Origin: Patescibacteria group bacterium
GTDB lineage: Bacteria > Patescibacteriota > Minisyncoccia > Phycocordibacterales > JACOZG01
Assembly (NCBI GenBank): GCA_038064435.1
Contig: JBBTTC010000003.1
Span: 9,205 to 73,204 of the forward strand
Length of the DNA: 64,000 nucleotides
Reading direction: 5' to 3'
The number at the start of each line of letters is the position of its first letter. Position 1 is the stretch's first letter. The position numbers and the translations under genes are program-made. Under the pieces are notes generated by a model. It saw nothing but the letters and a program-made list of their open reading frames with translations, did not search any database and was not told the DNA's origin. Of this stretch, positions 9,796 to 61,822 are shown one piece after another.

Positions 9796-9874
9796 GTGGT
9801 AAAATGAAGTTGTAAGTTTTCTTGGTCGTATGGTCGTGCGACCTTAATTAAGCAGTTATTTAATAAAATCTTAT

Positions 9875-10495: not shown

Positions 10496-10497
10496 TT

Positions 10498-14993: not shown

Positions 14994-15012
14994 ATGAACA
15001 AAATTTACCTGA

Positions 15013-15084: not shown

Positions 15085-15106
15085 AAGTGCCCAAACTATA
15101 TGGCAA

Positions 15107-25660: not shown

Positions 25661-25719
25661 GGCGTGATTATAACAAAAACCCCCGCCGTGGCGGGGGGTT
25701 TTTATCTAGAGAAATGATC

Positions 25720-35150: not shown

Positions 35151-37607
35151 ATGGTCAAAAAATTATTATTAATCGGCTTGGTGATGGCCTTCTTTGGCGC
35201 CGGCAGCGTGATGCTTTGGTTCACCACGCTCGACATCCCCGACTTCCGTTCTTTCAATCAGGATCGACTAATCACCGAGTCAACCAAAATTTATGACCGG
35301 ACGGGTAAAATTGTGCTCTATAGTCTGCACGAAAATGTCGAACGACAAGTGGTGGATTTTGATCACATCTCACGCTTTGTTAAAAACGCCACCGTAGCAA
35401 TTGAAGACGACCAGTTTTACGAACACTATGGAGTTAAGCCGATGGCCATTCTTCGGGCTTTTTTTGTTAATTTGGGCACCGCCTCCTTTCGCCAGGGTGG
35501 TTCCACCATCACCCAACAATTAATCAAGAACTCGGTCTTAACTCAAGACAAAAAAATATCACGCAAGATCAAAGAACTGGTCTTGTCCATCAAGGTAGAG
35601 CAGGTCTTGAGCAAAGAGGAAATTTTAACTCTTTATCTCAATGAAACACCGTATGGGGGTAATTTGTATGGCATCGAGGAAGCTAGCCGATCTTTTTTTG
35701 GCAAAGCAGCCGCTGATCTCAATTTAGTCGAATCGTCCTATTTGGCGGCCATACCCAAAGCCCCCACTTTTTATTCTCCCTACGGCAACAACCGCGACAA
35801 GTTAGAAGAGAGAAAAAATCTGGTTCTGGAACGAATGCTGGCCCTCAACTTCATCACCGCCGAAGAAAAAACGGCCGCCCAGCAAACAAAAATAACCTTC
35901 CAGCCAGCGGCTGATCGAGGCATTAAAGCGCCGCACTTTGTGCTTTGGGTGCGCGACTACTTGGAAGAAAAATATGGCCCCGACGTGGTGCGGCGACGCG
36001 GTTTGAAAATTACCACAACTCTAGATTGGGAATGGCAAAAAAAGGCCGAGGCTGTTATTCGCGAGTTTGCGCCGGGCAATGAAGAAAAGTTTAGAGCCAA
36101 AAATGCCGGCATGGTGGTGATTGATCCAAAAACCGGCGACATCTTGGCCATGGTCGGCTCGCGCGATTATTTTGAAACCGAAAATGACGGTAACTTCAAC
36201 ATTACCCTGGCTCACCGTCAGCCGGGTTCGGCCTTTAAACCCTTTGTTTACGCCACCGCCTTTAACAAGAGCTACACACCGGAAACCGTACTATTCGATC
36301 TGGAAACTCAATTTGACACTAATTGTGACACCGACCCCACCCGTTGCTACACGCCCGGCAACTACGACAACAATTTTCGCGGCCCGATGACCTTGCGACA
36401 GGCCCTTGCCCAGTCAATTAATATTCCGTCCATCAAAGCTCTGTATTTGGCCGGCATCCGCGATTCGATTGAGACAGCCACCGCCATGGGAATTGAAAAC
36501 TTGGGTGACGCCAATCAATATGGTCTGCCCTTGGTGCTGGGCGGCGGTGAGGTGTCACTCCTCGACATGGTCAGCGCCTACGGTGTGTTTGCTAATGACG
36601 GCGTCCGTCACCCTTATCGTCGCCTGCTAAAAGTGGAAGATAATGATGGTCGGGTGCTGGAAGAATCCGCCATCAGCGGACGCCGCGTTTTGCCCGAAAA
36701 CACCGCTCGCCTAATCAGTGACATTTTGTCCGACAATGCCGCTCGCTCACCGACTTTTGGCGAAAACTCCCTGCTCCACTTCCCCGGCCGCGACGTAGCG
36801 GTAAAAACCGGTACCACTAATGATTATCGTGACACTTGGATCATTGGCTACACGCCCGAGGTGGCCGTCGGCGCCTGGGTGGGTAATAACGACAACACGC
36901 CACTGGAGAAAAAAGTGGCCGGCTTGATCGTGGCACCATTGTGGAATTCCTTCTTCCGTCAGATTATGCCCGAGCTGGCCGACGAACGCTTCCCCGATCC
37001 ATTACCGGCACGGAAAGACATCAAGCCGGTTCTGCGCGGCATCTGGCAGGGTGGTGAAAACTATTTTGTGGATCAATCGTCCGGCAAACTGGCCACTGAC
37101 TACACGCCACCGGAATTACGCCAAGAAAAAGTGGTGCCGGCCGTACATTCGATTTTGTATTGGCTAGACAAAAATAATCTGCACGGCCCACGACCGAGTA
37201 ATCCCGAGCTTGATCCGCAATTCAAACTCTGGGAAGAACCGGTGCGTCGCTGGGCCGCGGCGCGTGGTTTGACCGACAGCACCTTGGCCGTTGCCCCGAG
37301 CACCGAGGATGACGTCCATCGACCGGAATACAGACCGGTACTTTCTATCTCTGGACCCACTGGGCCGCAAACCAAAGATCAGGTAATCAGCGTGGAAGTG
37401 CGAGCCGAATCACGTTTCCCCCTAGCTCAGGTGGACTTTTTTCTCAACAATTCCTTCTTGGGTTCCGCCACCGCCGCCCCGTTTAAAATTTCCTTCCGGC
37501 CATCCACGATTGAACACTTGGCCACCAACAACGAGCTCCGCGCCGTCGGCTACGACCAAGTGCGCAACCAAGGCGAAGCCAAAATGACCTTGGAGATTAG
37601 GGAGTGA
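35151..37607 (+). CDS. mrcA: Bifunctional penicillin-binding protein 1A (glycosyltransferase + transpeptidase) with C-terminal extension
   Basis: GT51 motifs EDDQFYEHYGV, RQGGSTITQQL; transpeptidase SAFKPF, KTGTT. Confidence 0.85.
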   Translation: MVKKLLLIGLVMAFFGAGSVMLWFTTLDIPDFRSFNQDRLITESTKIYDRTGKIVLYSLHENVERQVVDFDHISRFVKNATVAIEDDQFYEHYGVKPMAILRAFFVNLGTASFRQGGSTITQQLIKNSVLTQDKKISRKIKELVLSIKVEQVLSKEEILTLYLNETPYGGNLYGIEEASRSFFGKAAADLNLVESSYLAAIPKAPTFYSPYGNNRDKLEERKNLVLERMLALNFITAEEKTAAQQTKITFQPAADRGIKAPHFVLWVRDYLEEKYGPDVVRRRGLKITTTLDWEWQKKAEAVIREFAPGNEEKFRAKNAGMVVIDPKTGDILAMVGSRDYFETENDGNFNITLAHRQPGSAFKPFVYATAFNKSYTPETVLFDLETQFDTNCDTDPTRCYTPGNYDNNFRGPMTLRQALAQSINIPSIKALYLAGIRDSIETATAMGIENLGDANQYGLPLVLGGGEVSLLDMVSAYGVFANDGVRHPYRRLLKVEDNDGRVLEESAISGRRVLPENTARLISDILSDNAARSPTFGENSLLHFPGRDVAVKTGTTNDYRDTWIIGYTPEVAVGAWVGNNDNTPLEKKVAGLIVAPLWNSFFRQIMPELADERFPDPLPARKDIKPVLRGIWQGGENYFVDQSSGKLATDYTPPELRQEKVVPAVHSILYWLDKNNLHGPRPSNPELDPQFKLWEEPVRRWAAARGLTDSTLAVAPSTEDDVHRPEYRPVLSISGPTGPQTKDQVISVEVRAESRFPLAQVDFFLNNSFLGSATAAPFKISFRPSTIEHLATNNELRAVGYDQVRNQGEAKMTLEIRE

Positions 37608-37618
37608 CAACTGTCTTT

Positions 37619-37879
37619 TTACTTATACAAATTGCTGTGGCTATCAATATCGTCAAACTCAACAACATCCTCGGACAAAAAGATAAAAATCGCTCGAATA
37701 TCGCCAGTGATGTTAATACTGCGATAACTGGCATAACGACCCTTGAGAGTGTGATTATTTAGTTCGGGACTAAAGGGATAGAGGGAAAACAATTTTAGCT
37801 TCAGTTGAAAAGCTTTTTTTATTTTGGGATTCAGTTTCTTGAATTTCTTTTCGAAGTTACGGTGAAAGAAAATTTTCAT
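37619..37879 (-). CDS. relE: RelE/ParE-family toxin (YafQ/RelE-like mRNA interferase)
   Basis: FEKKFKKLNPKIKKAFQLKLKLFSLYPFSPELNNHTLKGRYASYRSINITGDIRAIFIF...IDSHSNLY matches RelE/ParE consensus. Confidence 0.7.
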   Translation of the reverse strand: MKIFFHRNFEKKFKKLNPKIKKAFQLKLKLFSLYPFSPELNNHTLKGRYASYRSINITGDIRAIFIFLSEDVVEFDDIDSHSNLYK

Positions 37880-38154
37880 AGCGCCGCAAGATGTTTGATG
37901 GCCTCACTGGCGGTGAACGGGCCGGAGATGTTTTTCTTAGCTTGGCGATCAGCTTCAATGGCCGCTAGAGTGGCTTCCAGCTCGAGAGTCATTTGCGGGA
38001 CAACAGAAAAAGTCACTTCTTCGGTTCGAATCAATTGCTTCAAGAAAGAGTTGATGATGGTGGAGAGTGGCACACCCAAACGCTCGGCAATGTGTTGCGC
38101 CTGCTTCTTGACCTGCTTGTCGGCCTTGATGTTGATAACCGTTTTAGTATTCAT
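37876..38154 (-). CDS. RelB/DinJ-family antitoxin (start at internal MNTKTVINIK)
   Basis: MNTKTVINIKADKQVKKQAQHIAERLGVPLSTIINSFLKQLIRTEEVTF, DinJ-like RHH; overlaps toxin by 4 nt. Confidence 0.65.
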   Translation of the reverse strand: MNTKTVINIKADKQVKKQAQHIAERLGVPLSTIINSFLKQLIRTEEVTFSVVPQMTLELEATLAAIEADRQAKKNISGPFTASEAIKHLAAL

Positions 38155-38189
38155 ACTAACTATTGTATATACAACGGTTAAATAGTCAA

Positions 38190-38490
38190 CCCACTGTACC
38201 AACTCCGCACGATCGTGAATTAGTGGGACAATGCCCGCATCCGAAGTTCGACTTCCAACACGAGGCTCGAAAATGTGTTGTGATTTTTGCTCGCCCGCGG
38301 CCAAGGGCGCTATTGTCAAGGACTGTCCTTGCCAGTGGGATTAACTAGAAACAAAAACCCATTGTACCAACTTTTTCCGATCGTGAAGAGTTGGTACAAT
38401 GAAAATAATCAAAGCAAAACTATAAGCAACGCCCGAAGTTCGACTTCCAGCACGGCGCGCACTGTCAAGGACGATCCTTGACAGTGGGTG
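38190..38490. repeat. Two tandem degenerate copies of an about 130-170-bp unit containing ccgaagttcgacttcca(a/g)cacg, a ttgtaccaa palindrome and a perfect 12-bp-stem hairpin
   Basis: cactgtcaagga-cga-tccttgacagtg at 38461..38487; imperfect copy at 38313..38340; ccgaagttcgacttcc at 38242 and 38434. Confidence 0.5.
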
Positions 38491-38528
38491 GCACAAACCC
38501 CCAAGGTGACACTTGGGTGTGTTCGGTA

Positions 38529-40418
38529 TTAAGGTGTTCTAGACTGAAATCCGTAAGCTTCACTTGTCAGATATATGAATTCTCCAAGCGGGCCATCATC
38601 ATCTGGATCGAGCACCAAAACTGGCCCCTGAGATGTTGTAAAAAACCCGGAAGACTTCATCAGATAGGCGGAATCAGGAGCGGTGATATCGTACTTATCA
38701 AGCATTTCATTTCCACCACTAGTATAGTGCCGCAGGTAAAGACGGCCCACCGAGGAGAGGCCTAGTGATCCACCAACGCTGGCCAGATTGGCAAGAGTAA
38801 AACGTTCTTTAATTTGGGTCGGCGATTGATATTCCAGAAATACAAGCCCGGATAACGTAGAAATAATCACGTTATTGCGCCAAAGGTTCATTTTTCTACC
38901 CACAACCTGTGGTATATCAAGCACAAAACTAATGAGTGGACTAGTTGGGATGCGAATGTCTACTACCTGCATTTTTGTACCACCATCGTGAACGATTAAT
39001 GCTTCCGAATTCACTTGGATTAGATCGGGCACATGGCCCAAAAGAAAAGTGCCTAGGGGGAGTTCTTTGCCAACGATAGGGCTCGAAACATTAGTAATGT
39101 TTATGGGAAATATCTTGAAAGCAGCCAGAGCGAAAACGTGACCCTTGACCGCACCCACACGGGAAATAGAGGTTGAACCTAACTGTTGGGGAGAAACGTG
39201 TGAAAGTAAAACAAAATTGTCTGGGTCAGCACGATAAATATCGAGACCTCTTGTCCCGCGAGCAAGATACAGTAGACCATCAGACAAAAACATTTGGATG
39301 ACCTCACTGATCTCAGTTACCGGCATAAGACGAATGCGCGGCAGAGAATAGGGATTACTTAAATCAGCGAGGCCCAGACGATCGTTGCTGCCAGACATCA
39401 ACCAAACCTTATTGCCTTCAATAACATAATTCTGATTGGCACGAAATGAAATAATTTCGTTAGTTACTGGATCAATCGGTGGATACATCCTTGCAATAAA
39501 ATCCATACTTGTCGCCACATGCACCGTCTTGAACACCACATCAGAAACATAGGGGTTGTTCCTTCGCACAGTCAAACTTACTTGTCTCTGAACATTCGGA
39601 TCAGGAAATTGATATTCAACTACGCCAGGTATGATTCGTGTACCGCCGTAGGGTAGGCCCCAACTGTCACGATCAAACTGGCCGACGGATGAACGAGCAT
39701 CGAGTCTTACCTTCAGACCCAGTTCAATCTGGTCATGGCTAGCGTCAGTGTCATCATCCTGCAAATCGATCTCCTCCCACACCTTACCGTCAGCACAAGT
39801 GCCATGAGTCGGTTCAGCATTTGTGCTGGCTAGACGGTAGGCGGTGTAGTTGGCAGTTAAGGTAGCATTGGCTGGGTCGGGGGTGACAGTGATGGGTAGT
39901 TGATCGATCGTGGTAATGATGCCGTTTTGCGTAACTTGGAGAATTGGCTGGTAGTCACCAGGCAGAGAGTAGATATGCGACCAGTTAATAGCGGTGCCGG
40001 GGGTGATTTTACCGCGCCGCACAGTGCAATCGCCAAAGCGCCATTCGTAGGTGGAGTCAGGTGAATAGCCAGCCGTGGCTTGGGTGAAGTTAGCTGGGCT
40101 ACCGTGAGGAATGGTGCTGATGTTGGTGGGCGCGGCAAAAGCGTCGAGGAAAGCGATGATGTCGTCAATGTCGATGTCTTTGTTGCCCGGACAAGGCGCA
40201 ATGTCGCAGTCGGGACAAGAGGTGTAGCCGTTGGCGAAAGCGTCGGTTAGCTTGAGGAGATCGTCAAGGTCAATGTCGCTATCGTGGTCGAGATCGGGGG
40301 TGGGGCAGTTGTTAGAGGCGGCTAATTGAGTGCCAGTATTTAAGTTAGTGTTAAAAGTAAAAGTTATCAGAACAAGAATAGCGGCTACACCAAAAGGCAG
40401 AGTGAGGAACTTGAGCAT
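38529..40418 (-). CDS. Secreted cell-surface protein: signal peptide, dockerin-like Ca-binding repeats, PKD-like domain, LVIVD-repeat beta-propeller region
   Basis: N-terminal signal MLKFLTLPFGVAAILVLITF; DLDHDSDIDLDDLLKLTDAF and NKDIDIDDIIAFLDAF dockerin-type repeats; later GLDIYRADPDNFVLLSHV / MQVVDIRIPTSP LVIVD-like repeats. Confidence 0.55.
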   Translation of the reverse strand: MLKFLTLPFGVAAILVLITFTFNTNLNTGTQLAASNNCPTPDLDHDSDIDLDDLLKLTDAFANGYTSCPDCDIAPCPGNKDIDIDDIIAFLDAFAAPTNISTIPHGSPANFTQATAGYSPDSTYEWRFGDCTVRRGKITPGTAINWSHIYSLPGDYQPILQVTQNGIITTIDQLPITVTPDPANATLTANYTAYRLASTNAEPTHGTCADGKVWEEIDLQDDDTDASHDQIELGLKVRLDARSSVGQFDRDSWGLPYGGTRIIPGVVEYQFPDPNVQRQVSLTVRRNNPYVSDVVFKTVHVATSMDFIARMYPPIDPVTNEIISFRANQNYVIEGNKVWLMSGSNDRLGLADLSNPYSLPRIRLMPVTEISEVIQMFLSDGLLYLARGTRGLDIYRADPDNFVLLSHVSPQQLGSTSISRVGAVKGHVFALAAFKIFPINITNVSSPIVGKELPLGTFLLGHVPDLIQVNSEALIVHDGGTKMQVVDIRIPTSPLISFVLDIPQVVGRKMNLWRNNVIISTLSGLVFLEYQSPTQIKERFTLANLASVGGSLGLSSVGRLYLRHYTSGGNEMLDKYDITAPDSAYLMKSSGFFTTSQGPVLVLDPDDDGPLGEFIYLTSEAYGFQSRTP

Positions 40419-40445: not shown

Positions 40446-40703
40446 TCACAAAATATCAATCGGGGCGTGGCGATTGAGAGTGGCGGCGAGACGCTGGAGA
40501 ATTTTGCTTTTCTGGACAAAAATTTCACCACGGACTAGCGGCGAAATTTGTAAGTACACGCGCCGACCGCTGACTTTTATTTGCTCGGACTTAAGCTGGT
40601 AACCACTAAATTTAAAAACTGTCTCAATAATGGCCTCCTTTAGATCCTGATGCGGTTTTTTCCAGTCGGCAAACTTAGCCAAAAAATCACCGAGGTGATT
40701 CAT
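40446..40703 (-). CDS. DUF721/DciA-like small protein immediately downstream of dnaN
   Basis: 85 aa; IKVSGRRVYLQISPLVRGEIFVQKSKILQRL resembles DUF721 core; conserved synteny with dnaN. Confidence 0.45.
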   Translation of the reverse strand: MNHLGDFLAKFADWKKPHQDLKEAIIETVFKFSGYQLKSEQIKVSGRRVYLQISPLVRGEIFVQKSKILQRLAATLNRHAPIDIL

Positions 40704-41812
40704 AGGGCCGGATTAAGAAGCGGCATAATCAAGTAAGTAAAACTAGCATCACCCACCCCGGTCATAATTACCGGTTTATTGGCGCCATTAAGCTTTAAAT
40801 TAATCGTATTGGCCATCAAGGACGTCATGGCTTCAAGCAAATATCGGGCATTAAGACTCACCGTCACGGGATCACCGGTAATTGTGGCCGTTAACTGACT
40901 TTCTTGATTACCGATCTCGCTATCGCGGCTCATTAATTCGATTTTTTGTTGTTTAGGATCAATGTTTAAGCTAATTTTACTAAGTTTATCGGCAAAAATA
41001 TTAGCCAACTTGAGCGCATTAACCCAATCCTGACGTAAAATGACCACTTCGGTCTCGTGCTGACGGGGAATAATTTGTTGGTAGTCGGGAAAATTACCGT
41101 CAATCAAACGAGTGGTGAAGTAAATTTCGCCGCCCACGATAACTAATTGATTTTTATCAAAGCTTACGGCCACCGAGCCAGTTTGATTCTCAAATGAGCG
41201 AATAATTTCGAGAGTATTGCGAGCCGGAACAATCAAGCTTAAACCTTTGATGTTAGTCGGGCTTAAATTAATCTTTTTTTCCGCCAAACGAAAGGAATCG
41301 GTGGCCGCTAAGACGAGATCCACACCGCTCTGATGCCAATAAACGCTATTTATTTCGGGTTTAATGCCGGAAGTTGAGGCGGCGTACCACACAGCCCGTA
41401 AACCTCCAATTAAGTCCTCTGCTGGCAATTCCAGCGTCTCACTGGTCTTGATGGTTGGCAAAGTGGGAAAGTCACCGCTGGGGTAACTTTTTATCGTGGC
41501 GGAATTAGTCGGCGTAGTAATTGTTAGATTATCGTTATTTAAAGACAAAGCAACCTTGTCTTTACCACTTAAATGGCTTAAAAACGAGTTCAAAATTGAA
41601 CCCTTAACAACGGCAGTGCCCGACTGGGAAACACGGGCATTAATGGTAATTTCTATACCTACTTCCAAATTAGTAGCGCGAACAGTGATTTTATTATCCT
41701 TCGCCCCCAAAAACACGTTGGCGAGCAACGGCAAGCTAAGATTTTTGCCAGTTGCTTTGTCAGCTAAACTAATCGCTCGACTTAATCCTTCAATAATGAC
41801 CTCGGCTTTCAT
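40700..41812 (-). CDS. dnaN: DNA polymerase III beta sliding clamp
   Basis: 370 aa three-domain clamp; MKAEVIIEGLSRAISLADKATGKNLSLPLLANVFL. Confidence 0.9.
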   Translation of the reverse strand: MKAEVIIEGLSRAISLADKATGKNLSLPLLANVFLGAKDNKITVRATNLEVGIEITINARVSQSGTAVVKGSILNSFLSHLSGKDKVALSLNNDNLTITTPTNSATIKSYPSGDFPTLPTIKTSETLELPAEDLIGGLRAVWYAASTSGIKPEINSVYWHQSGVDLVLAATDSFRLAEKKINLSPTNIKGLSLIVPARNTLEIIRSFENQTGSVAVSFDKNQLVIVGGEIYFTTRLIDGNFPDYQQIIPRQHETEVVILRQDWVNALKLANIFADKLSKISLNIDPKQQKIELMSRDSEIGNQESQLTATITGDPVTVSLNARYLLEAMTSLMANTINLKLNGANKPVIMTGVGDASFTYLIMPLLNPAL

Positions 41813-41879
41813 GTTATGAATCTCTATTTAATCTTACTTAAAGAATTTGATGGCAATAATTATCCTGTTGATATGTTAA

Positions 41880-42007
41880 TAACTCGATCTTAACTTTATT
41901 TTTAGCCGTTTTTTGGATTGAGGCCTGTGGATAAGGTCTGATCAGATTATGGCTAGAGAGTTGACTATTTATCAGCATTCACGGCCTATCCACTGCTTAT
42001 CCACAGG
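41880..42007. promoter_or_regulatory. DnaA-box cluster / candidate oriC element between dnaN and dnaA
   Basis: Perfect TTATCCACA at 41997..42005 (+) and 41926..41934 (as TGTGGATAA), 7/9 box cTATCCACt at about 41986; AT-rich tract 41881..41920. Confidence 0.6.
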
Positions 42008-43378
42008 TTATACCTCGTTGTACAGACGGTTACGGATTTGCTCTAATTCTTGAACTAAAGAATTATTGCTCTTCAAGTCCTGTTTGATCTTATCATAGGC
42101 ATGAATAACCGTGGTATGGTCGCGGCCGCCCAACTTTTGTCCAATATAGGGGTAGGAACTATTGCAATCCTCACGCAAGATATACATTATCATCTGGCGT
42201 GGCTTAACCACCTCCTTTTTTCGGGTTTTGTCATAGAGCATACGCTCGTCAATATTGTAAAAGTCGGCCACGACACTGGTGACATTTTTAATTGAGACAG
42301 TTTTTTGCGGTTTAATGTTGTTTTTTAGTAAACTTCTCACCTCCCCCATATTCAGCTCGCGTTTTTTAAGATAGGCCTGGCAGACCACGGCATTAAGTGC
42401 GCCCTCTAGTTCGCGGATATTCTCCTGAACCACGGTGGCGATGTATTCGATTATTTCATCTGGCAAGGAAAAGTTAAGACTTTGGGATTTAGATTTAAGA
42501 ATAGCCAATCGTGACTCAAATTCGGGCTTGGAAATACCAACGATCATGCCGCCTTCAAAGCGCGATTTTAGGCGATCTTCCAAATTGGGTATAAATTTTG
42601 GTGATTTGTCAGACGAAAAGATGATTTGTTTGTTATTCTCGTAAAAATTATTGAACAAGTGGAACAATTCGTCTTGGGTTCGATCTTTATTAGCCAAAAA
42701 TTGCGTATCGTCCATGATTAAAACATCGTATTTGCGATATTTTTCCTTAAAACCGTTAGTTTTGTTGTTTAAAACCGAATTAACGTAATCAATCGAAAAG
42801 CGTTCAGCGCTAACGTAGTAGATTTTTTTATTGGCATTAATTTTCTTAAGATGATTGCCGATCGACTGGATTAAGTGGGTTTTACCTAAACCAGTTGGCC
42901 CGTAAATAAAGAGCGGGTTATAGACCATGCCGGGATTTTTAACTACGGCTTGCGAGGCGGCATGGGCCAACTCGTTAAAAGTGCCAACCACGAAGGAATC
43001 AAAGATGTATTTAGAGTTAAGGTTATCGTCTTTGTTGATATACAGATCGTTGAGCCCTAGTTGTTGGTTAAGTGATGGTTTTTCTCCCATCACCTCTTCT
43101 TTGGTCGGTGATTTAGGCTTATCGTCATTGGTTTTTTGGATAATATACTCCAAACTGCGCACCTCGGGACACAAATTACGAATGGTTTTTATAATCGACA
43201 AATGGTATTTGCTGGCCAGCCATTCTTTAGCGAAGGAATTAGGCACACCAACGTACATCACGCCAGCTTCCTGTTTAATAATATTGGTATTACGGAACCA
43301 AGTACCGAAAGTAGCACGAGAAATTGTTAATTCAATCTCGGTTAGCACATCAGTCCACAATTTTTTGTGGTCAGTCAT
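42008..43378 (-). CDS. dnaA: Chromosomal replication initiator DnaA
   Basis: AAA+ YNPLFIYGPTGLGKTHL, VLIMDDTQFL, C-terminal DnaA-box-binding domain. Confidence 0.9.
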   Translation of the reverse strand: MTDHKKLWTDVLTEIELTISRATFGTWFRNTNIIKQEAGVMYVGVPNSFAKEWLASKYHLSIIKTIRNLCPEVRSLEYIIQKTNDDKPKSPTKEEVMGEKPSLNQQLGLNDLYINKDDNLNSKYIFDSFVVGTFNELAHAASQAVVKNPGMVYNPLFIYGPTGLGKTHLIQSIGNHLKKINANKKIYYVSAERFSIDYVNSVLNNKTNGFKEKYRKYDVLIMDDTQFLANKDRTQDELFHLFNNFYENNKQIIFSSDKSPKFIPNLEDRLKSRFEGGMIVGISKPEFESRLAILKSKSQSLNFSLPDEIIEYIATVVQENIRELEGALNAVVCQAYLKKRELNMGEVRSLLKNNIKPQKTVSIKNVTSVVADFYNIDERMLYDKTRKKEVVKPRQMIMYILREDCNSSYPYIGQKLGGRDHTTVIHAYDKIKQDLKSNNSLVQELEQIRNRLYNEV

Positions 43379-43984: not shown

Positions 43985-44721
43985 TTGCCAATCTTTTTAA
44001 TACGATCTTTTTTGAACCGCTATACAATGCTCTGGTTTTTATCAGTAGCGTTTTGCCGGGCCATAATCTAGGTTTGGCCATAATTATCTTAACCTTGATT
44101 GTCAAACTCATTCTTTTTCCCCTCTATCATCGGGTGGCCACTACGCAAAAAAAATTAAAAACCCTTGAGCCGGAACTAAAAAAAATAAAAGATGAACACC
44201 GCGATAATCGTCAACGTCAAGCGGAAAAAATAATGGAGCTCTATCGTCAGCATGGGCTTAATCCCCTGTCAGGCTTATGGATTATGCTTATCCAGATTCC
44301 CATTCTGCTGGCCTTATTTTGGGTGTTTCGCGATAGCGTGACCTTGCGGCCAGAATTGTTGTATTCGTTTGTTAAGCCGCCGGCGACGCTCAACAGTTAT
44401 CTCGGTTTTATTGATTTAACTCAAGCCAGTTATTTGCTGGCTATTCTCACTGGCGCGGCCCAATGGTTGCAAATGCAACTCTCCATTCCTCCTTTGCCGG
44501 CATCCGATCCCCAGACGGCTAAGGGCTTTAGTCAGGACTTGGCCAAAAGTATGAATATTCAAGCTCGGTATGTTTTACCCGCGATGATGCTAGTTTTTTC
44601 TCTCGGTTTACCCGGAGCCATTGCTTTGTACTGGCTGGTGGGTAGCTTATTTACTATCGCCCACGAACTTTTAGTTAAGAGGCAGACGAAGGCGCTTTTA
44701 GGGGCAGAGACCATAAACTAA
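43981..44721 (+). CDS. yidC: Membrane protein insertase YidC (short form)
   Basis: AIIILTLIVKLILFPL...KKLKTLEPELKKIKDEH...QAEKIMELYRQHGLNPLSG. Confidence 0.85.
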   Translation: MIANLFNTIFFEPLYNALVFISSVLPGHNLGLAIIILTLIVKLILFPLYHRVATTQKKLKTLEPELKKIKDEHRDNRQRQAEKIMELYRQHGLNPLSGLWIMLIQIPILLALFWVFRDSVTLRPELLYSFVKPPATLNSYLGFIDLTQASYLLAILTGAAQWLQMQLSIPPLPASDPQTAKGFSQDLAKSMNIQARYVLPAMMLVFSLGLPGAIALYWLVGSLFTIAHELLVKRQTKALLGAETIN

Positions 44722-45883
44722 GATCAGCTCGATGGCGGAAGAAAAGCTTTTGGCCATCAGTACTAATTAGTAAATCAATCATATCTAAATTGCTGGTCGC
44801 GGTTGGCAAAGACAGTAAGTCGGATGCGCCGGTGATGGCATCAACCGACCACACTTGATCGCTGGTGGTGAGGTCGCCGCGGTGCCAATCACCGAGTGGC
44901 CAACGGTCCGGCACAGCACAAATTAGGCCGGCGGAATTATTTTGCCAGCGGCATTTTGGTGGAATGGTGGCAATGGCCAGAACTGAAGTGGTTTGTTTTT
45001 TGAGGTCGTAAATATAGGTGACCGGACCCTGGCCCGAATTCTGGCTGTAGATAATTTTTTCTCCATCCGGACTGATTAGGGTCTCTAGGCCGCGGATGTT
45101 GCGCAAAATGGGACGCAGTTCTTTGGTCGTTGGGTTTAGAAAATAAAGAAAGCCGTTCAAATTGCTAGCTGGTTTGGTGGTGAGGGCAATAATTTTCTCG
45201 GTTGGCCAGTCTACCAACCAGTCGTCAAGTGGCGAAGAGAAAAGCGTTTGACCGTCATTTTGGTCCGCCGGCCACTTGGTTGCTACACCCTCGGTTCCAG
45301 TTGTGCCAGACTGGAGAAAAAAAGCCTTATCGCCGGCAAAGGTCCAGTTAGTGACGTTGTTGCCAAGACGAACGGGTTCGCGCGCCGCCTCGTTCCGATC
45401 TAGCGGCCAAGCGGCCAGCCAGGCGCTCGTGCCCGTTTCGGTGTGTTGACGCATAAAGAGACGCAATTCGTTGGATGTGGTTTGCCAGACTGTTTGTTGA
45501 ATGCCGGGGAGAGTGAAATTTGATAAACGTTCCGGCTGGCCATCTGGGTTGAGAGTATAAACGTGGCCCGTGGCGCTCTCTTGGTAAAAAATTTGTTGGC
45601 CCATGGCGGTAAAACCACTAATAGGGCCAGAAATCAATTGCTGGGGTCGACTATTGTCGTCGGAAATTGGTTCGGTTGAATCACCGATGATTGGTGTTGG
45701 CGCAAATGCTTCGGGCTCGGCAATGTTTCCACTAGAATCGATCGGAAAGGCGTCACTGACCGTTTCGTCCTCTGGTGAGTTGGCTGATGGTGACGATGAA
45801 TTGTTGCCGCCCAGCCACCAGATTACACCGAGAGCCGCTAGTGGCAAAAGAATCAGTACGCCAACAATAATTTTTTTATTCAT
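44675..45883 (-). CDS. Secreted beta-propeller (TolB/PD40-like repeats) protein; first gene of T4SS-like cluster by position
   Basis: Signal peptide MNKKIIVGVLILLPLAALGVIW; repeated ISPDGEKIIYS / STDGQKLFF PD40-like motifs. Confidence 0.45.
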   Translation of the reverse strand: MNKKIIVGVLILLPLAALGVIWWLGGNNSSSPSANSPEDETVSDAFPIDSSGNIAEPEAFAPTPIIGDSTEPISDDNSRPQQLISGPISGFTAMGQQIFYQESATGHVYTLNPDGQPERLSNFTLPGIQQTVWQTTSNELRLFMRQHTETGTSAWLAAWPLDRNEAAREPVRLGNNVTNWTFAGDKAFFLQSGTTGTEGVATKWPADQNDGQTLFSSPLDDWLVDWPTEKIIALTTKPASNLNGFLYFLNPTTKELRPILRNIRGLETLISPDGEKIIYSQNSGQGPVTYIYDLKKQTTSVLAIATIPPKCRWQNNSAGLICAVPDRWPLGDWHRGDLTTSDQVWSVDAITGASDLLSLPTATSNLDMIDLLISTDGQKLFFRHRADLSLWSLPLKAPSSAS

Positions 45884-46314
45884 TTGCCAGATGTTAGATC
45901 GGGGAAGCTCAAATTTACCAAATCAGGATTGATTTCGTACAAAATCAAATAAGCGGCCAGGGCGAGCAAGAGGCCCAGCACAATGCCGGACATGCGGCCT
46001 TTAACATCAGCTTTGACCCCGGGTAAGCCACTGGCGGCATAGCGCACTCCCTCCAGTACCAGCATGACGATGGCGGCCACAATGGTGAAGCTGATCAGCA
46101 CCTTAAACAGACCCTTAAGGTAATCAGTTAAGTTGCTGGCTTGATCGAGGCTGGCAAAGCCGCTGTTGGCATTAGACAGGGCATCATTGGTCGGTGGTTG
46201 ATTATTCGTCGTGCCGAGAGGGACAACGCCGGTGTCATTGGCTGTAACGATGGTGGTGCCCAGGACACCGAACAGAACAATCATTAGAATGACCAACAAT
46301 AGCTTATTAATCAT
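45880..46314 (-). CDS. Small signal-peptide + two-helix membrane protein; VirB2/TrbC-like pilin candidate
   Basis: 144 aa; signal/TM, polar linker, then two hydrophobic helices (LISFTIVAAIVMLVLEGV; IVLGLLLALAAYLILY). Confidence 0.35.
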   Translation of the reverse strand: MINKLLLVILMIVLFGVLGTTIVTANDTGVVPLGTTNNQPPTNDALSNANSGFASLDQASNLTDYLKGLFKVLISFTIVAAIVMLVLEGVRYAASGLPGVKADVKGRMSGIVLGLLLALAAYLILYEINPDLVNLSFPDLTSGK

Positions 46315-47020
46315 AATGCAGAGCGATTTTTTTCTCGGCGGCCTGACGAATGGCCGCGGGATTTTTTACCGCCAAATTAATCTCGGTTTGATCAAATGGC
46401 CCAGCGGCCTCAAAGATCATTAGCCGGCCGCCCCAAAACGGCGAACTGACCACTTGTTTATGGCCGTCTTGCGTTACCGTCCAGTTATAGACCAGCTGAT
46501 TCAGGGCGGAGCGAGAAAAATTAAAAGGTTCGGCCAAGATTGATAGCGACGATTGATCAAGCCGTAAGGAAGAAGCTAGTGCCTGCTGGTAATGTGGTCC
46601 AACGAGGGGCGCGCTGGCGTAAAAAATAACTTGCGGTAAAACTAGATTGATATCAACTCGGGCATCAGTGAGCCGCCGGCCACCTTGATCACTGATGGTA
46701 ACTTTGATTTGGTGACGAGCTAAAGACGGAGCAGTTTGGAAAGTGAGATTGGAGCGGCCACGGCCGGAGAGGGCCGGCAGAGATTTGCCATCCTTTTGCC
46801 AATTAAAATTAAGGTTTGCGCTACCGCCGCTCACCATGGCCACCACCCTCACTTCGCTGCCCGGTACGGCCTGGCTGTGCCCACGGTAAAATGGTGGTTG
46901 ATAGGTCTCGGCCGACCAGAGCAGGTCAACAGTTAAATTACTGCGTTGGGCAAGCGCTGGGGTGGTGACACCGAGCGCCAAACCAATAATTATTAGATTA
47001 ATAATCTTCATTATTGCCAC
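46307..47020 (-). CDS. Secreted hypothetical protein (T4SS-like cluster)
   Basis: 237 aa, signal peptide MAIMKIINLIIIGLALGVTTPALA. Confidence 0.4.
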   Translation of the reverse strand: MAIMKIINLIIIGLALGVTTPALAQRSNLTVDLLWSAETYQPPFYRGHSQAVPGSEVRVVAMVSGGSANLNFNWQKDGKSLPALSGRGRSNLTFQTAPSLARHQIKVTISDQGGRRLTDARVDINLVLPQVIFYASAPLVGPHYQQALASSLRLDQSSLSILAEPFNFSRSALNQLVYNWTVTQDGHKQVVSSPFWGGRLMIFEAAGPFDQTEINLAVKNPAAIRQAAEKKIALHYD

Positions 47021-47348
47021 GAACGATTTTTTCAGCTTTTTGACTAAGCAGGGTGGTAGCTATCGCAATGGTCCAGCCCGGGAGGATGTTTAAAAACGGC
47101 ACGGCTTCGATGAGGGCGGCCACCGCTAGGGTGGCTTGCCGTTTAAATTGCCTTTGCACTATTCCCGACCAGCCACTGACCAGTATAAACCAGACAAAAA
47201 AAGTTAACCACGCTATCACGTCAATCGGAATGGTAAAGAGCGCGCCCGCTCCAGTTAAGCTTAATAAAAATTGAATGGCGTCAAAACATAAAGCCACGGC
47301 CACCATGGCGGCTTTGATAACAAAATTAATGTCGCGCGGTTTGCTCAT
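46998..47348 (-). CDS. Small polytopic membrane protein (T4SS-like cluster)
   Basis: 116 aa, 3-4 TM helices; overlaps neighbours. Confidence 0.4.
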   Translation of the reverse strand: MSKPRDINFVIKAAMVAVALCFDAIQFLLSLTGAGALFTIPIDVIAWLTFFVWFILVSGWSGIVQRQFKRQATLAVAALIEAVPFLNILPGWTIAIATTLLSQKAEKIVRGNNEDY

Positions 47349-49188
47349 TGTTGCTGGCCTGGTTTAGGTCTTGGCGAGCTTTTTTTATAGCCAGAATCTG
47401 CGACGGGTCGGAGGTAATGATTTGGTCTTCGGTGTATGAAGCAATGATCTTCATGGCCACATGTTTGAGACCAGCAAAGAAAATTCCTTCGCCGACCGCC
47501 GACTCAAGCAGGAGATATTTTTCCTCATCGGTGAGCTGGAAAGTTTTTTGCACTAAGTCGATGGAGGCCGGTGATTGCTTGAGGAGCAATTGCAAAGACG
47601 AGTTGGTAATGATGGGCAAGCCGTAATCGGAGCGCAAGAAGTCACCCACATCTTGAGTGATGGTGGCCACGCCTAAATAATATTTGCGGCCGCGTTTAAC
47701 GAGCGAGAAAAGGAACGAAGCTGTGTCTTTGGACTTCATCATCCACCAAGCCTCATCAATTACCAACAGGCGTTTCTTGAGTGTGCGGCGGATGGCGTTC
47801 CAAATGTTGTGCATAACAATGTACATAGCCACCGGCTTGAGTTCATCTTCCATGTCGCGCACCGAGAAAACCACAAACTTTTTGTTAATGTCGACATTGG
47901 TTGGCCGGTTGAGAAAATTTGCCCAAGTGCCTTGGGTATATTTGAGCAAGCGTTGCGCCAGCGAAGCACCACCCTCCATGCCAGCCAAGACCAGCTCTAG
48001 GTCGGAGAGTAGGGGCGCCGGCTTGTGGCCAAAGTCGGTGTCGGCGGTGATATCTTTTAGAGCGTAAGTTTCGGTAATGGCGCTGTCGATAATGGCATCC
48101 TCTTCCGTCGTTAGTCCGCCCAACATGATGCGAAACAGTCCGACTAGGTTGATGATGTGTGAGCGCAAAACATCGGCCGGCGATTCGTCCTCGCGAGGAA
48201 AAGGTAAATCAAACGGATTGATGTGATGCTCGGAGGTGAGGGAAATATTAAAATAACGTCCGCCTACCGCCTCGGCCAAAAACTCGTATTCCCGCTCCGG
48301 GTCGATGACGATCACGTCAGTGTCGAACATCAAGCTACGCAAAATTTCTAGCTTGGTGGTGTAGGATTTGCCGGCGCCAGACTTGGCAAAAATCACCGAG
48401 TTGTAATTTTCTAGCGAGAAGCGATCAAAGAGCACTAGACTGGAATTGTGGCGATTGATGCCATAGAGAATACCGCGATTGGACGTTAGGTCAAAAGAAA
48501 CAAAGGGAAATAAGCTCGAGAGCGGCGCCGAATTGAGCTTGTAGTTAATTTTTAGCAAGTCATTGGCCGCTGGCAAAACGCTTTTAAAACCCTCGGCTTG
48601 TTGAAACAAAGCCGGCTTGAGATAAACCAGCTTGGCGTCAAGAATAGATTTAATTTCCGCCTCGGCGCGGTCAAGCTCGTCGTCGCTTTGGCCGTAGATA
48701 GTGATGTACAGGCCAACATCAAAAATGCGCTCGCGCGCTTGCTGGAGTGAGTCGCGGAGTTTCTCGATGTCTTCGTGGGCGGTGTCGAGCACCGGATCGC
48801 GCACCATCCCCCGTTCTTCCTTCAGACTAATTTGGCTTTGCACCTCGGCCACCTTTTTTTCCAACTGGCGCAGGGCGATGGTGGTGTCGATCGGGTGAAT
48901 AAAAATGGAAACGTCAAAAACCTTGTCCAAATTAATGACGGGTGAAAACCAATCATCAGTTAGAAACCGCGGATAAGAAATAACAAAAAAGGTGCGAGCT
49001 AGCTTATCGCCGAGATGGAGACGGCGGGGTGTGATCTCCAGAGCCGATGGCGCGACAATATCTTTGAGCTCTAGGACGCCCAATTGGTAAATATCTTTGG
49101 GTAGAATTGGTGTGAGATTGCCGGCCGATGTGGTTTTTGCTTTCGAGAAGATCGCCATGTTAAACGGCCGTGGGCGCGGCGACCTCAC
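47326..49188 (-). CDS. virB4: VirB4/TrbE/PrgJ-family T4SS ATPase, ATPase portion
   Basis: Walker A VIFAKSGAGKSYTTK, VIVIDPEREY, Walker B LLVIDEAWWMM, TQDVGDF. Confidence 0.8.
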   Translation of the reverse strand: MRSPRPRPFNMAIFSKAKTTSAGNLTPILPKDIYQLGVLELKDIVAPSALEITPRRLHLGDKLARTFFVISYPRFLTDDWFSPVINLDKVFDVSIFIHPIDTTIALRQLEKKVAEVQSQISLKEERGMVRDPVLDTAHEDIEKLRDSLQQARERIFDVGLYITIYGQSDDELDRAEAEIKSILDAKLVYLKPALFQQAEGFKSVLPAANDLLKINYKLNSAPLSSLFPFVSFDLTSNRGILYGINRHNSSLVLFDRFSLENYNSVIFAKSGAGKSYTTKLEILRSLMFDTDVIVIDPEREYEFLAEAVGGRYFNISLTSEHHINPFDLPFPREDESPADVLRSHIINLVGLFRIMLGGLTTEEDAIIDSAITETYALKDITADTDFGHKPAPLLSDLELVLAGMEGGASLAQRLLKYTQGTWANFLNRPTNVDINKKFVVFSVRDMEDELKPVAMYIVMHNIWNAIRRTLKKRLLVIDEAWWMMKSKDTASFLFSLVKRGRKYYLGVATITQDVGDFLRSDYGLPIITNSSLQLLLKQSPASIDLVQKTFQLTDEEKYLLLESAVGEGIFFAGLKHVAMKIIASYTEDQIITSDPSQILAIKKARQDLNQASNNEQTARH

Positions 49189-49801
49189 CCGGGTTAAACA
49201 TTTTGAAATAAATCTCGACCAGTTCTTCCGTACCCAAAGTGGCTACTCGCACGCCAAAGCGGCTTAGGCCTTGGTTCACCACTCCCACCCGCTGTTCCAG
49301 CTGTGATCGCCGTTCGTCAAATTGATCTGTTGGGCCGCCCGTCGCGGCAGATCCCCTTTTGTTGAGTATTCGTCCTAGCCAACCACTTTTGACCGGCATG
49401 ATGGGCGGGTCATATGGTACGACCACGAAGAAGTTTTTGGTCATGATGTCGGTGGAGTCGGTAAAGTTTTTAATGAACTCGACGTACTCGCGAGTTTGGA
49501 TCTTGATCAGGTCATTAACCTGATCCTTGCCTAGGCCTTCCAGCATGGCGATGTAGGGCTTGATGTCGAGCTGGCGGGACTGAATAAAGAGTTGAATATG
49601 AAAATCGAGAGAATTGAGAAAATTTTGGTATTGAAAAATGATCGCCTCCTTCTCTTCCTCCGACTTGAGGGCGAAGTTAAGAGATGAGGCGATCAAAATT
49701 ATGCGCAGGCCACCGTTTTTTAAAACGACGACACCATCGCGGATCTCGGCGATCTCGACAAAATCTTGAGTGGGTCTACTTTCTACCGCCATGTTCCACA
49801 A
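49160..49801 (-). CDS. VirB4-family N-terminal domain as separate ORF (overlaps ATPase ORF by 29 nt in a different frame)
   Basis: FVEIAEIRDGVVVLKNGGLRIILIASSLNFALKSEEEKEAIIFQYQNFLNSL resembles VirB4/TraE N-terminal (CagE_TrbE_VirB) region. Confidence 0.55.
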   Translation of the reverse strand: MWNMAVESRPTQDFVEIAEIRDGVVVLKNGGLRIILIASSLNFALKSEEEKEAIIFQYQNFLNSLDFHIQLFIQSRQLDIKPYIAMLEGLGKDQVNDLIKIQTREYVEFIKNFTDSTDIMTKNFFVVVPYDPPIMPVKSGWLGRILNKRGSAATGGPTDQFDERRSQLEQRVGVVNQGLSRFGVRVATLGTEELVEIYFKMFNPGEVAAPTAV

Positions 49802-49830
49802 ATTGTAACATGACTGGCCACTTTTAAGAA

Positions 49831-50232
49831 TCAGTTAATCTTTTCGCGAACATCGAGACTCCAAGATAGATCTTTGAGTTTGCTTTGCGACAGCTTGGGG
49901 ATCAGCACTGGCCGTTCGGCGTTGACGAGCGCCTCGGCGGTGACGATTTTTTTGTCCGTTTTTTTCCATAGATATAGTTTGTGGTTGGCTAAATAGCGTG
50001 TGGCGGCCTCGGCCAAAAAGATCAAGGGTCGATTGTTGACTTTGTAAAAAGCCAAACCGAGGGCGCTGACGGCGATGGCCATCATGGGGATAACGGCTAA
50101 ATAAAACGGCAAGTAAGCGTAAGCGAGAAAAGCTCCGCCGGCTCCGCCGGCCAAGTAGACGAACTGCTTGAAGGTTAGCGGCCCGAAAATCTTATCTTCA
50201 ACTTCAATAAATTGTGGGACTTGGAAGTTCAT
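49831..50232 (-). CDS. PrgI-family / VirB3-like small membrane protein
   Basis: MNFQVPQFIEVEDKIFGPLTFKQFVYLAGG N-terminus followed by two TM helices; immediately upstream of VirB4 as in Gram-positive T4SS. Confidence 0.6.
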   Translation of the reverse strand: MNFQVPQFIEVEDKIFGPLTFKQFVYLAGGAGGAFLAYAYLPFYLAVIPMMAIAVSALGLAFYKVNNRPLIFLAEAATRYLANHKLYLWKKTDKKIVTAEALVNAERPVLIPKLSQSKLKDLSWSLDVREKIN

Positions 50233-50705
50233 TTAATGTTGGGATCAACTGATTCGTGGTAGGGGTCGGGCAGATCCACTTCTTCGCGCGGCAAACGGAA
50301 GAGCTTAGACATTTTTTCTTCAAACACGCCGGCTTGGCCGGCCGGAGCTTTGGCGGCGGCGGGCCCGGGCGCGACGGGCGGTGGCGGCACAACGTGGAGT
50401 TTTTTCAGCGACTCTTGAATTTGGGCAAAAATCAGACTATTAACGTCGGCAGTGATGGTGGCCACCACCGCCGGCGCGAGGCCAAGGTCACGCGCCACGT
50501 CGGCACCGTAGGTGGCTAGTGGTTCCAAGCCCATCATTACTAAGGCTGTGCGATCAGCCAAGAGACCAAGCTGATCCAGATGTAGATGATGCTTGAGGCC
50601 GATCTCGCCCAAAGCACCGGCCAAATCCAGCTCGGCAATGGCCTCCTTAACATCCTCCGGCAATCCACTAAACGCTTTAGCTAATTGTTCATTGGTGTGT
50701 TCCAT
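50229..50705 (-). CDS. Hypothetical protein (T4SS-like cluster)
   Basis: 158 aa, Pro/Ala-rich segment. Confidence 0.35.
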   Translation of the reverse strand: MEHTNEQLAKAFSGLPEDVKEAIAELDLAGALGEIGLKHHLHLDQLGLLADRTALVMMGLEPLATYGADVARDLGLAPAVVATITADVNSLIFAQIQESLKKLHVVPPPPVAPGPAAAKAPAGQAGVFEEKMSKLFRLPREEVDLPDPYHESVDPNIK

Positions 50706-50707
50706 GA

Positions 50708-61570: not shown

Positions 61571-61822
61571 TTGTGGCCAATGAATTACTATACTTATCGC
61601 ACAATTATTGAGCCGGACGGCAAGAAATTTCATGGTTATGTGCCAGCCTTACCGGGTTGCCACACTTTTGGCCGGACCATTCCTGAAACCAAAAAACATC
61701 TGCGCGAAGCCATCGAGCTTTATCTCGATGAGATTATGGCCGGTGGTGAAAAGGTGCCGGCCGACTCTAGTTTTGAATCTTTTGAAACAATCGCTCTGAT
61801 TGATCGTAGGGTTCGTGTCTAA
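61571..61822 (+). CDS. hicB: HicB-family antitoxin
   Basis: YTYRTIIEPDGKKFHGYVPALPGCHTFGRTIPETKKHLREAIELYLDE is canonical HicB/UPF0150. Confidence 0.75.
   Translation: MWPMNYYTYRTIIEPDGKKFHGYVPALPGCHTFGRTIPETKKHLREAIELYLDEIMAGGEKVPADSSFESFETIALIDRRVRV

Follow-up and report, generated by a model that had tools for sequence, protein, structure and literature searches.

Repetitive extragenic palindromic (REP) sequences are high-copy elements, typically present in more than 100 copies per genome (PMC2817692); in most of them the palindrome has an unpaired tag, GTAG or CGTC, at one of its ends (PMC3733652), and many have a linked Y1 transposase, the REP-associated tyrosine transposase (RAYT) (PMC2817692, PMC3733652). 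In E. coli, arrays of REP sequences in 3′-untranslated regions (3′UTRs) act as partial terminators and as stabilizers of the mRNA (bioRxiv 10.64898/2026.03.23.713779). Here, we describe a two-copy repeat found in a stretch of 64,000 nucleotides from a Patescibacteria group bacterium (GenBank assembly GCA_038064435.1, contig JBBTTC010000003.1, positions 9,205 to 73,204 of the forward strand; hereafter, the window). The repeat lies in a 374-bp spacer (38155–38528) which has a gene for a PKD-domain surface protein (629 aa; 38529–40418, minus strand) on one side and a relB/yafQ toxin-antitoxin (TA) operon (37619–38154, minus strand) on the other; the gene coordinates thus agree with the position given in the original prediction. 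Its layout recalls that of REP sequences and of BIMEs (bacterial interspersed mosaic elements), as palindromes of alternating orientation, joined by a conserved linker, are arranged in tandem in the 3′UTR between co-directional genes. The best explanation overall, which we regard as probable, is nevertheless a different one: the two copies would be tandem relics of a small convergent HicB-like gene cassette, acting at most as a terminator or insulator.

Copy 1 spans 38188–38339 and copy 2 spans 38356–38488 (unit sizes of 133–152 nt, read here on the plus strand), and both follow the order H1-M-H2, where H1, with a 5′ CCC tail, and H2, with a 3′ GGG tail, flank the motif M in the spacer after the PKD gene. 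The copies are 76% identical in H1 (38188–38233 and 38356–38401), 95% in M (CCGAAGTTCGACTTCCARCACG; 38241–38262 and 38433–38454) and 88% in H2 (38314–38339 and 38463–38488). A 16-mer of M, CCGAAGTTCGACTTCC, is found in the window at 38241 and at 38433 and nowhere else, and none of 100 shuffles gave three or more matches to M at up to three mismatches. From copy 1 to copy 2 the offsets are 168 nt for H1, 192 nt for M and 149 nt for H2, so that indels separate the modules; the description of the locus as a degenerate tandem repeat with indels is therefore borne out. That the locus is no array of clustered regularly interspaced short palindromic repeats, as also stated at the outset, agrees with the presence of only two units, their size, the degree of identity between the modules and the unequal offsets; such an array would call for at least three nearly identical direct repeats of 23–50 nt with unique spacers of similar length between them. 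Three features had not been recognized before: the ends of the unit are inverted over 8–9 nt (CCCAYTGT...ACAGTGGG), H1 and H2 are related palindromes with common outer arms and a GATCGT centre, and the perfect hairpins are confined to copy 2, their versions in copy 1 being eroded.

In copy 2, H1 (palindrome at 38360–38401) has a perfect 13-bp stem, CATTGTACCAACT/AGTTGGTACAATG, with three further pairs, a CGATCG centre and an apical region of 10–16 nt; it is followed by a spacer (AAAATAATCAAAGCAAAACTATAAGCAACGC; 38402–38432), by M (CCGAAGTTCGACTTCCAGCACG) and by H2 (38460–38488), which has a perfect 12-bp stem and a 3-nt loop, cactgtcaagga-cga-tccttgacagtg (38460–38486), and then GG. In copy 1, H1 (AACCCACTGTACCAAC..CGATCGTGAA..ACAATG; palindrome at 38192–38233) retains its left arm, but the right arm is degenerate and the hairpin is gone. 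M (CCGAAGTTCGACTTCCAACACG) holds a 5-bp inverted repeat, GAAGT/ACTTC, and is followed by what we read as the relic of a promoter (AGGCTCGAAAATGTGTTGTGAT; 38263–38284) and by H2 with a relic stop codon, tattgtcaagga-ctg-tccttgccagtg GG GAT TAA (38311–38344, the TAA at 38342–38344); the stem of this H2 (38311–38337) has one mismatch and two T·G positions. Thus, of the two structures originally described for both copies, the ttgtaccaa...ttggtacaa palindrome and the perfect 12-bp stem with its 3-nt loop, each is present as described in copy 2 only. A further small hairpin, CCCAAG-gtgaca-CTTGGG (38500–38517), lies between copy 2 and the PKD stop codon (38529–38531).

The origin of the unit can be approached through the only homolog of the PKD protein that was found (P0002, 27% identity), which is encoded on another contig from the Hainich groundwater and whose downstream DNA matches the repeat. 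This second locus (contigs L115 and L122–L125; hereafter, locus B) shares its Hainich samples of origin with the window locus. Its PKD variant, P0243, from the 90%-identity cluster of P0002, is MEK7610416.1 and the PKD protein of the window is MEK7610266.1, 150 numbers apart, and we infer that both loci belong to one metagenome-assembled genome (MAG). At locus B a 69-aa open reading frame (ORF) is found on the opposite strand, tail-to-tail with the PKD gene, the two stop codons abutting. Along the strand of this ORF, which corresponds to the plus strand of the window, the first block is CCACTTTTCC...AACTATCG, which resembles the left arm and the loop of H1; the second is M, as GCCAGCAT-CCGAAGTCAGACTTCC (CCGAAGTCAGACTTCCAACCTG, homologous to M of copy 1), with the arms retained and the loop changed from TCG to CAG. 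Then, about 22 nt downstream of M and six nt before the ATG, comes AACCTGAAGCTCGGGAATGTGTTATAAT, which we read as an extended −10 box and which suggests that the mRNA of the small ORF may be leaderless. The ORF itself follows and ends in ...GGACAGTCCTTGCCAGTGG-AGTCCTTGCCAGTGG-AAC-TAA (SPCQW-SPCQW-N-stop), that is, in the right arm of H2, directly duplicated.

The order of blocks in copy 1 is parallel: GCCCGCAT-M, ...GCTCGAAAATGTGTTGTGAT, some 29–30 nt of unrelated sequence, the left arm of H2 and then GGACTGTCCTTGCCAGTGG-GAT-TAA. In GCTCGAAAATGTGTTGTGAT the −10 box is decayed by two A-to-G changes, TGTTGTGAT at 38276–38284 being the counterpart of the extended −10 box TGTTATAAT of locus B, and the right arm of H2 with its TAA matches the last codons of the locus-B ORF (..PCQWD-stop against ..PCQWN-stop). 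The right arm of H2 in copy 2 is likewise homologous to the 3′-end of that ORF. The modules of the two loci are therefore homologous and agree in order and orientation, as several measures indicate: with blastn the unit matches locus B at 83% over 47 nt (E 2.5e-7), covering M and the promoter, and at 95% over 20 nt, covering the right arm of H2; nhmmer gives E 5e-6; the collinear local alignment of copy 1 with locus B scores 58 against 18 ± 2.7 for shuffles; and the alignments of the tails of both copies exceed those of 500 out of 500 shuffles (33.5 for copy 1, the maximum among the shuffles being 24). Beyond copy 2, another 12 nt (GTGGCACAAAC) match the end of the PKD gene of locus B, but by themselves they are not significant.

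A three-way alignment shows in what the loci differ. Locus B is without the 33 nt that make up the loop and right arm of H1 and without the left arm of H2, so that it has a single arm for each palindrome and, when folded, is no more stable than shuffled sequences; the window, in turn, has no counterpart of the ORF. The 31-nt spacer of copy 2, of which 24 nt are missing in copy 1, aligns for the most part with what lies immediately upstream of M in locus B, and ATGAAAATAATC in copy 2, considered as a 5′-end of the small ORF, was rejected on this ground. As an observation in its own right, locus B carries a direct duplication (L122:4917–4960) of the 15 nt with which the small ORF ends (AGTCCTTGCCAGTGG); in the window the same segment is duplicated inversely, as H2, and this short segment seems to be prone to duplication.

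We hold with some confidence that the repeat originated as two internally deleted tandem relics of a small-gene cassette, inherited together with a PKD paralog. The ancestor would have consisted of a PKD surface-protein gene lying tail-to-tail with a convergent, HicB-like small gene that had its own promoter region; this arrangement would have been present twice, apparently in the same Patescibacteria genome, and would have stayed intact at locus B. In the window, the cassette would have gained inverted duplications, of the upstream segment to form H1 and of the 3′-end of the ORF to form the H2 palindrome. Since the palindromes are found in both window copies and are absent from locus B, they would have arisen in the window, one arm being duplicated in inverted form, and this before the cassette was duplicated in tandem. 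The body of the ORF would then have been lost from both copies, copy 1 retaining a decayed promoter and a stop codon with eroded hairpins, and copy 2 retaining the perfect hairpins. That the change was a loss of the ORF in the window, and not a gain at locus B, is what we infer from the decayed −10 box and from the retention of an in-frame stop.

The 69-aa ORF of locus B is a real gene, with a similarity to the N-terminal domain of HicB that places it in the HicB-like/UPF0150 antitoxin family. It matches 295 cluster representatives at E ≤ 1e-3, over residues 1–55, and its tail, which overlaps H2 and lies outside the matched residues, is private. A profile built from 44 of its relatives matches PDB 2yzt (TTHA1756) with E 1.3e-6 and HicB chains weakly (E 0.19–0.57), and five of the 44 match the Pfam family PF15919 (HicB_lk_antitox); the ORF itself has no Pfam match, and a single-sequence AlphaFold model of low confidence (predicted local distance difference test score of 61) was not used. 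Its closest relative within the window (E 3e-5) is a 96-aa protein encoded next to a hicA gene. No hicA gene is present at locus B, where the ORF abuts the PKD stop codon; several HicAB pairs are found in the genome, and the relic adjoins a TA module. In the window, two HicA toxin genes were seen (1402–1924, minus strand, and 61580–62036, plus strand), each with a small antitoxin-like gene ahead of it, one coding for the 96-aa protein, which has no Pfam match, and the other for an 80-aa HicB_lk protein. Like other relics of TA-type genes of the HicB/UPF0150 kind, the unit keeps the 5′-region of a small ORF (M and the decayed extended −10 box), its last codons and its stop; unlike them, it has lost the body of the ORF entirely, it is duplicated in tandem and its ends have become perfect palindromes, while the intact paralog at locus B has neither a HicA partner nor a DNA-binding domain. 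The repeat is best read as a new example of something already known, namely the remains of a gene between two others.

The two copies differ markedly in folding. Copy 2 is far more stable than its shuffles (z = −7.2 for the plus and −4.7 for the minus strand), whereas copy 1 is not (z = −1.4 and −2.0, neither strand being better); the structure anticipated by the original prediction is thereby confirmed for copy 2 and not for copy 1. In copy 2, H1 folds with −22.8 kcal/mol on the plus and −19.8 kcal/mol on the minus strand (z = −7.9 and −5.4), and H2 with −25.5 kcal/mol on the plus and −18.7 kcal/mol on the minus strand. All eight differences that fall within the perfect 13-bp and 12-bp stems of copy 2 unpair copy 1 and not copy 2, a one-sided distribution with P of about 0.004 under equal neutral rates. 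Near the loop of H1, copy 2 has CTTTTTC, as does locus B, so that CTCCGCA of copy 1 is the derived form with locus B as the outgroup. From these comparisons, copy 2 appears to be maintained and copy 1 to be decaying, and the asymmetry in stem pairing, together with the derived changes in copy 1, indicates that the hairpins of copy 2 are either kept by selection or renewed by templated mutation. Quasi-palindrome (template-switch) mutation turns imperfect inverted repeats into perfect ones. It is a mutational mechanism and not a family of elements, but through it the single arm seen at locus B could have become a perfect palindrome of two arms in the window without any selection. Two contigs of the Logan collection (L026 and L027) end within the perfect H2 palindrome of copy 2, at positions 38464 and 38461 of the window, and the palindrome or the repeat may disturb short-read assembly. 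An unrelated long hairpin is present at 56335–56378, with a 17-bp stem and one mismatch (TAGTTGCCCAACGGCTT-10 nt-AAGCCGTTGGGCAACAA).

Does copy 2 have a function at present? By likeness to the REP arrays of 3′UTRs (bioRxiv 10.64898/2026.03.23.713779), a role as terminator and insulator can be proposed for it, tentatively and as a possibility that we rate below the origin of the repeat as a relic. On the minus strand, which is the strand of all the flanking genes, H1 of copy 2 is placed between the PKD stop codon and the TA promoter, and it is followed at once by GUUUUUGUUU; by our own reading of the sequence, the U-tract directly 3′ of H1 is GGG-UUUUUGUUUCU (38347–38357, minus strand). The hairpins of copy 2, and especially H1 with the UUUUUGUUU that comes after it, would end and stabilize the dnaA-dnaN-PKD transcript, and would shield the autoregulated relB/yafQ promoter from read-through. 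With intrinsic or tandem terminators the locus shares a stable hairpin followed by a U-rich run, downstream of one gene and upstream of the next promoter; it differs from them in the AU-rich base of the stem, the large apical region and the two further hairpins, without U-tracts, that precede H1. Sites resembling intrinsic terminators are modestly enriched in the genome. A textbook bidirectional intrinsic terminator was found at 25680–25697 (CCCCCGCC-GTGG-CGGGGG, with T-tracts on both strands), from which it follows that the organism uses canonical terminators.

Several points weigh against the interpretation of the repeat as a relic with a possible terminator role. The direction of change falls short of proof because the residual spacer of copy 1, about 30 nt long, has no significant similarity to the body of the ORF (739 of 1000 shuffles score as well as the supposed remnant); an insertion of the ORF at locus B, or a cassette with cargo there and an empty one in the window, would also be conceivable. 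The assignment of both loci to the same genome is indirect, based on the proximity of the accession numbers, the shared samples and equal coverage. The DnaN protein of the closest relative is only 47–49% identical, and there is no orthologous intergenic DNA for comparison. Two perfect palindromes are unexpected in a relic unless they are selected or were made recently by templated (quasi-palindrome) mutation, and perfect stems need not mean selection. As a terminator, H1 of copy 2 is atypical in its AU-rich base and large apical region, and a consensus scan did not call it, because its loop and stem are outside the rules of the scan. Finally, the strand preference by folding energy is mixed, H2 favouring the plus strand and M the minus strand. 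Variation within the strain does not help here, as 8 of 8 contigs of the strain are 99.8–100% identical and hence uninformative.

Of the other explanations, the one that survives best, while still unlikely, is that the minus strand encodes a structured RNA, either a 3′UTR-derived small RNA or a cis-acting element formed by the H2 and M stem-loops, a U-rich stretch and an H1 terminator, functional in copy 2 and decaying in copy 1. Copy 2 is indeed laid out as a typical bacterial small RNA, in which two hairpins on the 5′ side precede a U/A-rich linker and a terminator hairpin with its U-tract, and its stems have been kept perfect; moreover, an extended stem of M forms on the minus strand only, with one pair that covaries (C-G in copy 2, where copy 1 and locus B have U-A), although one such compensatory change, set against many others, is no more than anecdotal. 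An Rfam scan of 37000–39500 at E ≤ 10 gave no family match, the best score being that of sX14 (16.1 bits against a gathering threshold of 80; E = 7); there is no promoter-like site upstream on the minus strand, no homolog was found in any collection searched, and the folding energies show no consistent preference for one strand. Most tellingly, the structure is absent from the only homologous locus, locus B, with its one arm per palindrome. The suggestion of a small-RNA pair in the original prediction finds no support in these results, the lack of structure conservation being what that prediction itself had named as counting against it.

It is quite unlikely that the unit is a mobile cassette, a miniature inverted-repeat transposable element (MITE) or a REP/BIME-like selfish element, with the ends CCCAYTGT...ACAGTGGG inverted, the ORF as cargo at locus B and the empty form in the window, having been inserted, or amplified, beside the 3′-ends of PKD genes. 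Besides the inverted ends, such an origin would fit the opposite orientation of the related palindromes H1 and H2 around a conserved motif, as known from REP dimers or BIMEs (PMC2817692, PMC3733652), the occurrence of homologous blocks at two loci, with homology running from near CCACT to near AGTGG, and the varied contexts in which the neighbouring TA module occurs elsewhere. Against this, there is no target-site duplication (the flanks are AGTCAA/ATTAAC for copy 1 and CAAAAA/TGGCAC for copy 2), and the unit is found at only two loci in about 105 kb of the genome. The PKD genes are themselves paralogous at a similar DNA identity (78%), so that no mobility is needed to account for the two sites: duplication of the whole locus suffices. 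Among the genes called and ORFs scanned in the window and its flanks, none coded for a transposase, a RAYT or a reverse transcriptase; with locus B included (about 105 kb), there was no Y1_Tnp/RAYT match.

The searches for dispersed copies agree with this. Neither the window nor its flanks in the 85-kb contig contain a further copy, hairpin-bearing or other, the only homolog being the gene-bearing one at locus B, and no H1-type palindrome occurs elsewhere in the roughly 105 kb of this genome that were sampled. Probes requiring exact matches of 18–20 specified bases, by which diverged copies would be missed, gave only chance matches in unrelated coding DNA in 185,579 GTDB species genomes, in the JGI metagenomes and in IMG/VR: a 19-mer of M had 23 such matches in the GTDB genomes, encoding KFDFQH and none of them in Patescibacteria, the H1 probe had six in the JGI metagenomes, and three probes of IMG/VR gave chance matches or none. 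A blastn search of plasmids and phages returned nothing. Membership in the REP/BIME class was accordingly rejected despite the similar hairpin-array layout: here, there are two units at one locus plus one gene-bearing homolog, neither of the unpaired ends, CCC and GGG, has a GTAG or CGTC tag, H1, at 42 nt, is longer than a typical REP sequence, and no RAYT was seen. A MITE, which the original prediction had also put forward, would agree in size (130–150 nt), in its short inverted ends and in its intergenic location, but the lack of a target-site duplication, of dispersed copies and of a parent transposase, and the homology of the content to the flanks of a gene, led us to discard this identity as well. 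The template/variable repeat pair of a diversity-generating retroelement was likewise rejected, as the gene lists contain no reverse transcriptase and both copies are intergenic. We consider it very unlikely that the segment from M to H2 is a private Patescibacteria cassette, mobile or prone to recombination, that settles at the 3′-ends of PKD genes, sometimes with a HicB-like gene, and has been exapted as mRNA 3′-end hairpins and as an insulator of the TA promoter.

There is equally little to recommend the view that the repeats are double-stranded binding sites for a protein, whether as operators (for the PKD gene, the TA operon or the small gene that was lost) or as sites that resemble a centromere or are associated with the origin. 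In M, an inverted repeat, the arms are conserved and the spacer differs (TCG against CAG), and the distance of M from the −10 box at locus B is normal for an operator; in the window, however, the gene that it would regulate is gone. The operator idea of the original prediction thus keeps some merit for M as part of a promoter-proximal region, but of the small gene lost here and not of the neighbouring genes. A homolog of the small ORF that is 68% identical, on an unrelated contig of another organism, has no M upstream; M is therefore private to this genome, and a family-wide operator was rejected. The locus does lie in the zone where the GC skew turns, 3.4 kb from DnaA boxes and near dnaA and dnaN, but no match to TTATCCACA with up to one mismatch occurs in 38188–38488, the perfect boxes being at 41926 and 41997 in the dnaA-dnaN spacer, so that an oriC or DnaA-box cluster was discarded; by eye, H1 and its centre fit neither a parS nor an attC consensus. 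H1 and H2 are perfectly self-complementary over 12–13 bp yet differ in their inner sequences, which points to hairpins rather than to a recognition sequence common to both.

The TA operon, for its part, has an operator of its own. Homologs of the module on other contigs (YafQ 78–79% and RelB 74% identical) share a promoter/operator of 26–35 nt, TTGAC-N6-TAACCGTTGTRTATAYAATAGTTA-ATG, which corresponds to 38155–38189 of the window. This segment (minus strand) abuts the end of copy 1, outside the repeat, and consists of a σ70-like promoter, TTGACT-16-TACAAT (38189–38162), overlapping the palindrome TAACCGTTGTATATACAATAGTTA. It is conserved in three groups of homologs, at 88–96% over 24–33 nt in those on unrelated contigs (L057–L071, L116–L119), and the similarity ends at the −35 box. 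Since these homologs lack the repeats altogether, the repeats are not part of the TA module, and their identity as a type II TA operator, one of the possibilities first raised, was rejected. Because the promoter/operator is conserved in unrelated contigs in which the module stands in different gene contexts, the TA module itself looks horizontally mobile. In several public assemblies relB is annotated as a gene of 142–147 aa with a TTG start (37876–38319, minus strand), which crosses copy 1; the true start is the ATG at 38154 (92 aa), because the conserved promoter lies within the extended call and because the RelB homologs start at the ATG of the 92-aa form.

The weakest of the alternatives, and one that we hardly credit, is that the repeats are coding sequence, for small proteins (a 51-aa minus-strand ORF over copy 2, or a Cys-rich 23-aa plus-strand ORF at 38273–38344, which keeps the start/stop frame of the lost gene) or for an N-terminal extension of RelB: the existing gene calls of 147 and 142 aa, a minus-strand frame open across almost the whole spacer and in frame with relB, and the endings ..DCPCQWD-stop of the plus-strand ORF and ..SPCQWN-stop of the locus-B ORF speak for it, but the differences between the copies show no bias to third codon positions, the promoter lies within the extended call, similarity to RelB or YafQ is lacking (a resemblance of copy 1, QHI..E.R.G, to RelB is not significant at the DNA or protein level), the plus-strand ORF read from the ATG at 38231 has no Pfam match, and the −10 box of the 23-aa ORF is decayed and would fall inside that ORF.

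The repeat locus is part of the origin region, with the gene order rnpA-rpmH, dnaA (42008–43378, minus strand) and dnaN (40700–41812, minus strand), and the GC skew turns at about 37–44 kb. The spacer between dnaA and dnaN (41813–42007), with two perfect DnaA boxes in opposite orientation (41926–41934, minus strand, and 41997–42005, plus strand) and AT-rich stretches, is likely to be oriC. Contigs of the same strain come from a Hainich groundwater Patescibacteria MAG (ENA Hain_H41; NCBI GCA_964356735.1, contig CAYHIJ010000001.1). The PKD proteins of the window (38529–40418) and of locus B (L122:2937–4916) are mosaic paralogs: their Cys/Asp-rich N-terminal 60 aa or so are about 80% identical (78% over 174 nt of DNA) and the remainder 20–27%, with C-termini alike by eye and diverged middles. 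Fast or diversifying evolution may be at work in the central part. Next along at locus B is a third PKD/Calx-beta protein (871 aa). Just past rnpA and yidC, a cluster of genes resembling a type IV secretion system (44675–52633, minus strand) includes a pilin (45880–46314), a VirB4/TraG-like ATPase (47326–49188), a TraC-like protein (49160–49801) and a PrgI-like protein (49831–50232), and all its genes are on the strand opposite to the local GC-skew sign. Elsewhere, a segment of low GC content (43–46%; 8900–15100) holds a relaxase gene (about 8932–9795) and genes for two TrwB/TraG-like coupling proteins (about 10498–12486 and about 13459–14961, the second of which has a recombinase zinc-ribbon), has tRNA-Val and tRNA-Arg (14918–15085) at its end and looks like an integrated conjugative or mobilizable element.

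The relic interpretation, by which the origin of the repeat is largely accounted for as ordinary genome decay, has little importance beyond annotation. A false lead is removed, since RNA family, MITE family, CRISPR-like array and origin element all drop out as identities of the repeat; an error that recurs in the calling of relB is corrected; and the real relB/yafQ promoter/operator is told apart from the adjacent relic. The interpretation also offers a small worked example of how the flanks of a lost gene can persist, be duplicated and become perfect palindromes, and maybe serve as terminators. If it is true that copy 2 ends the PKD transcript, the locus would illustrate, in a modest way, how a gene relic of a reduced genome gives rise to a regulatory structure.

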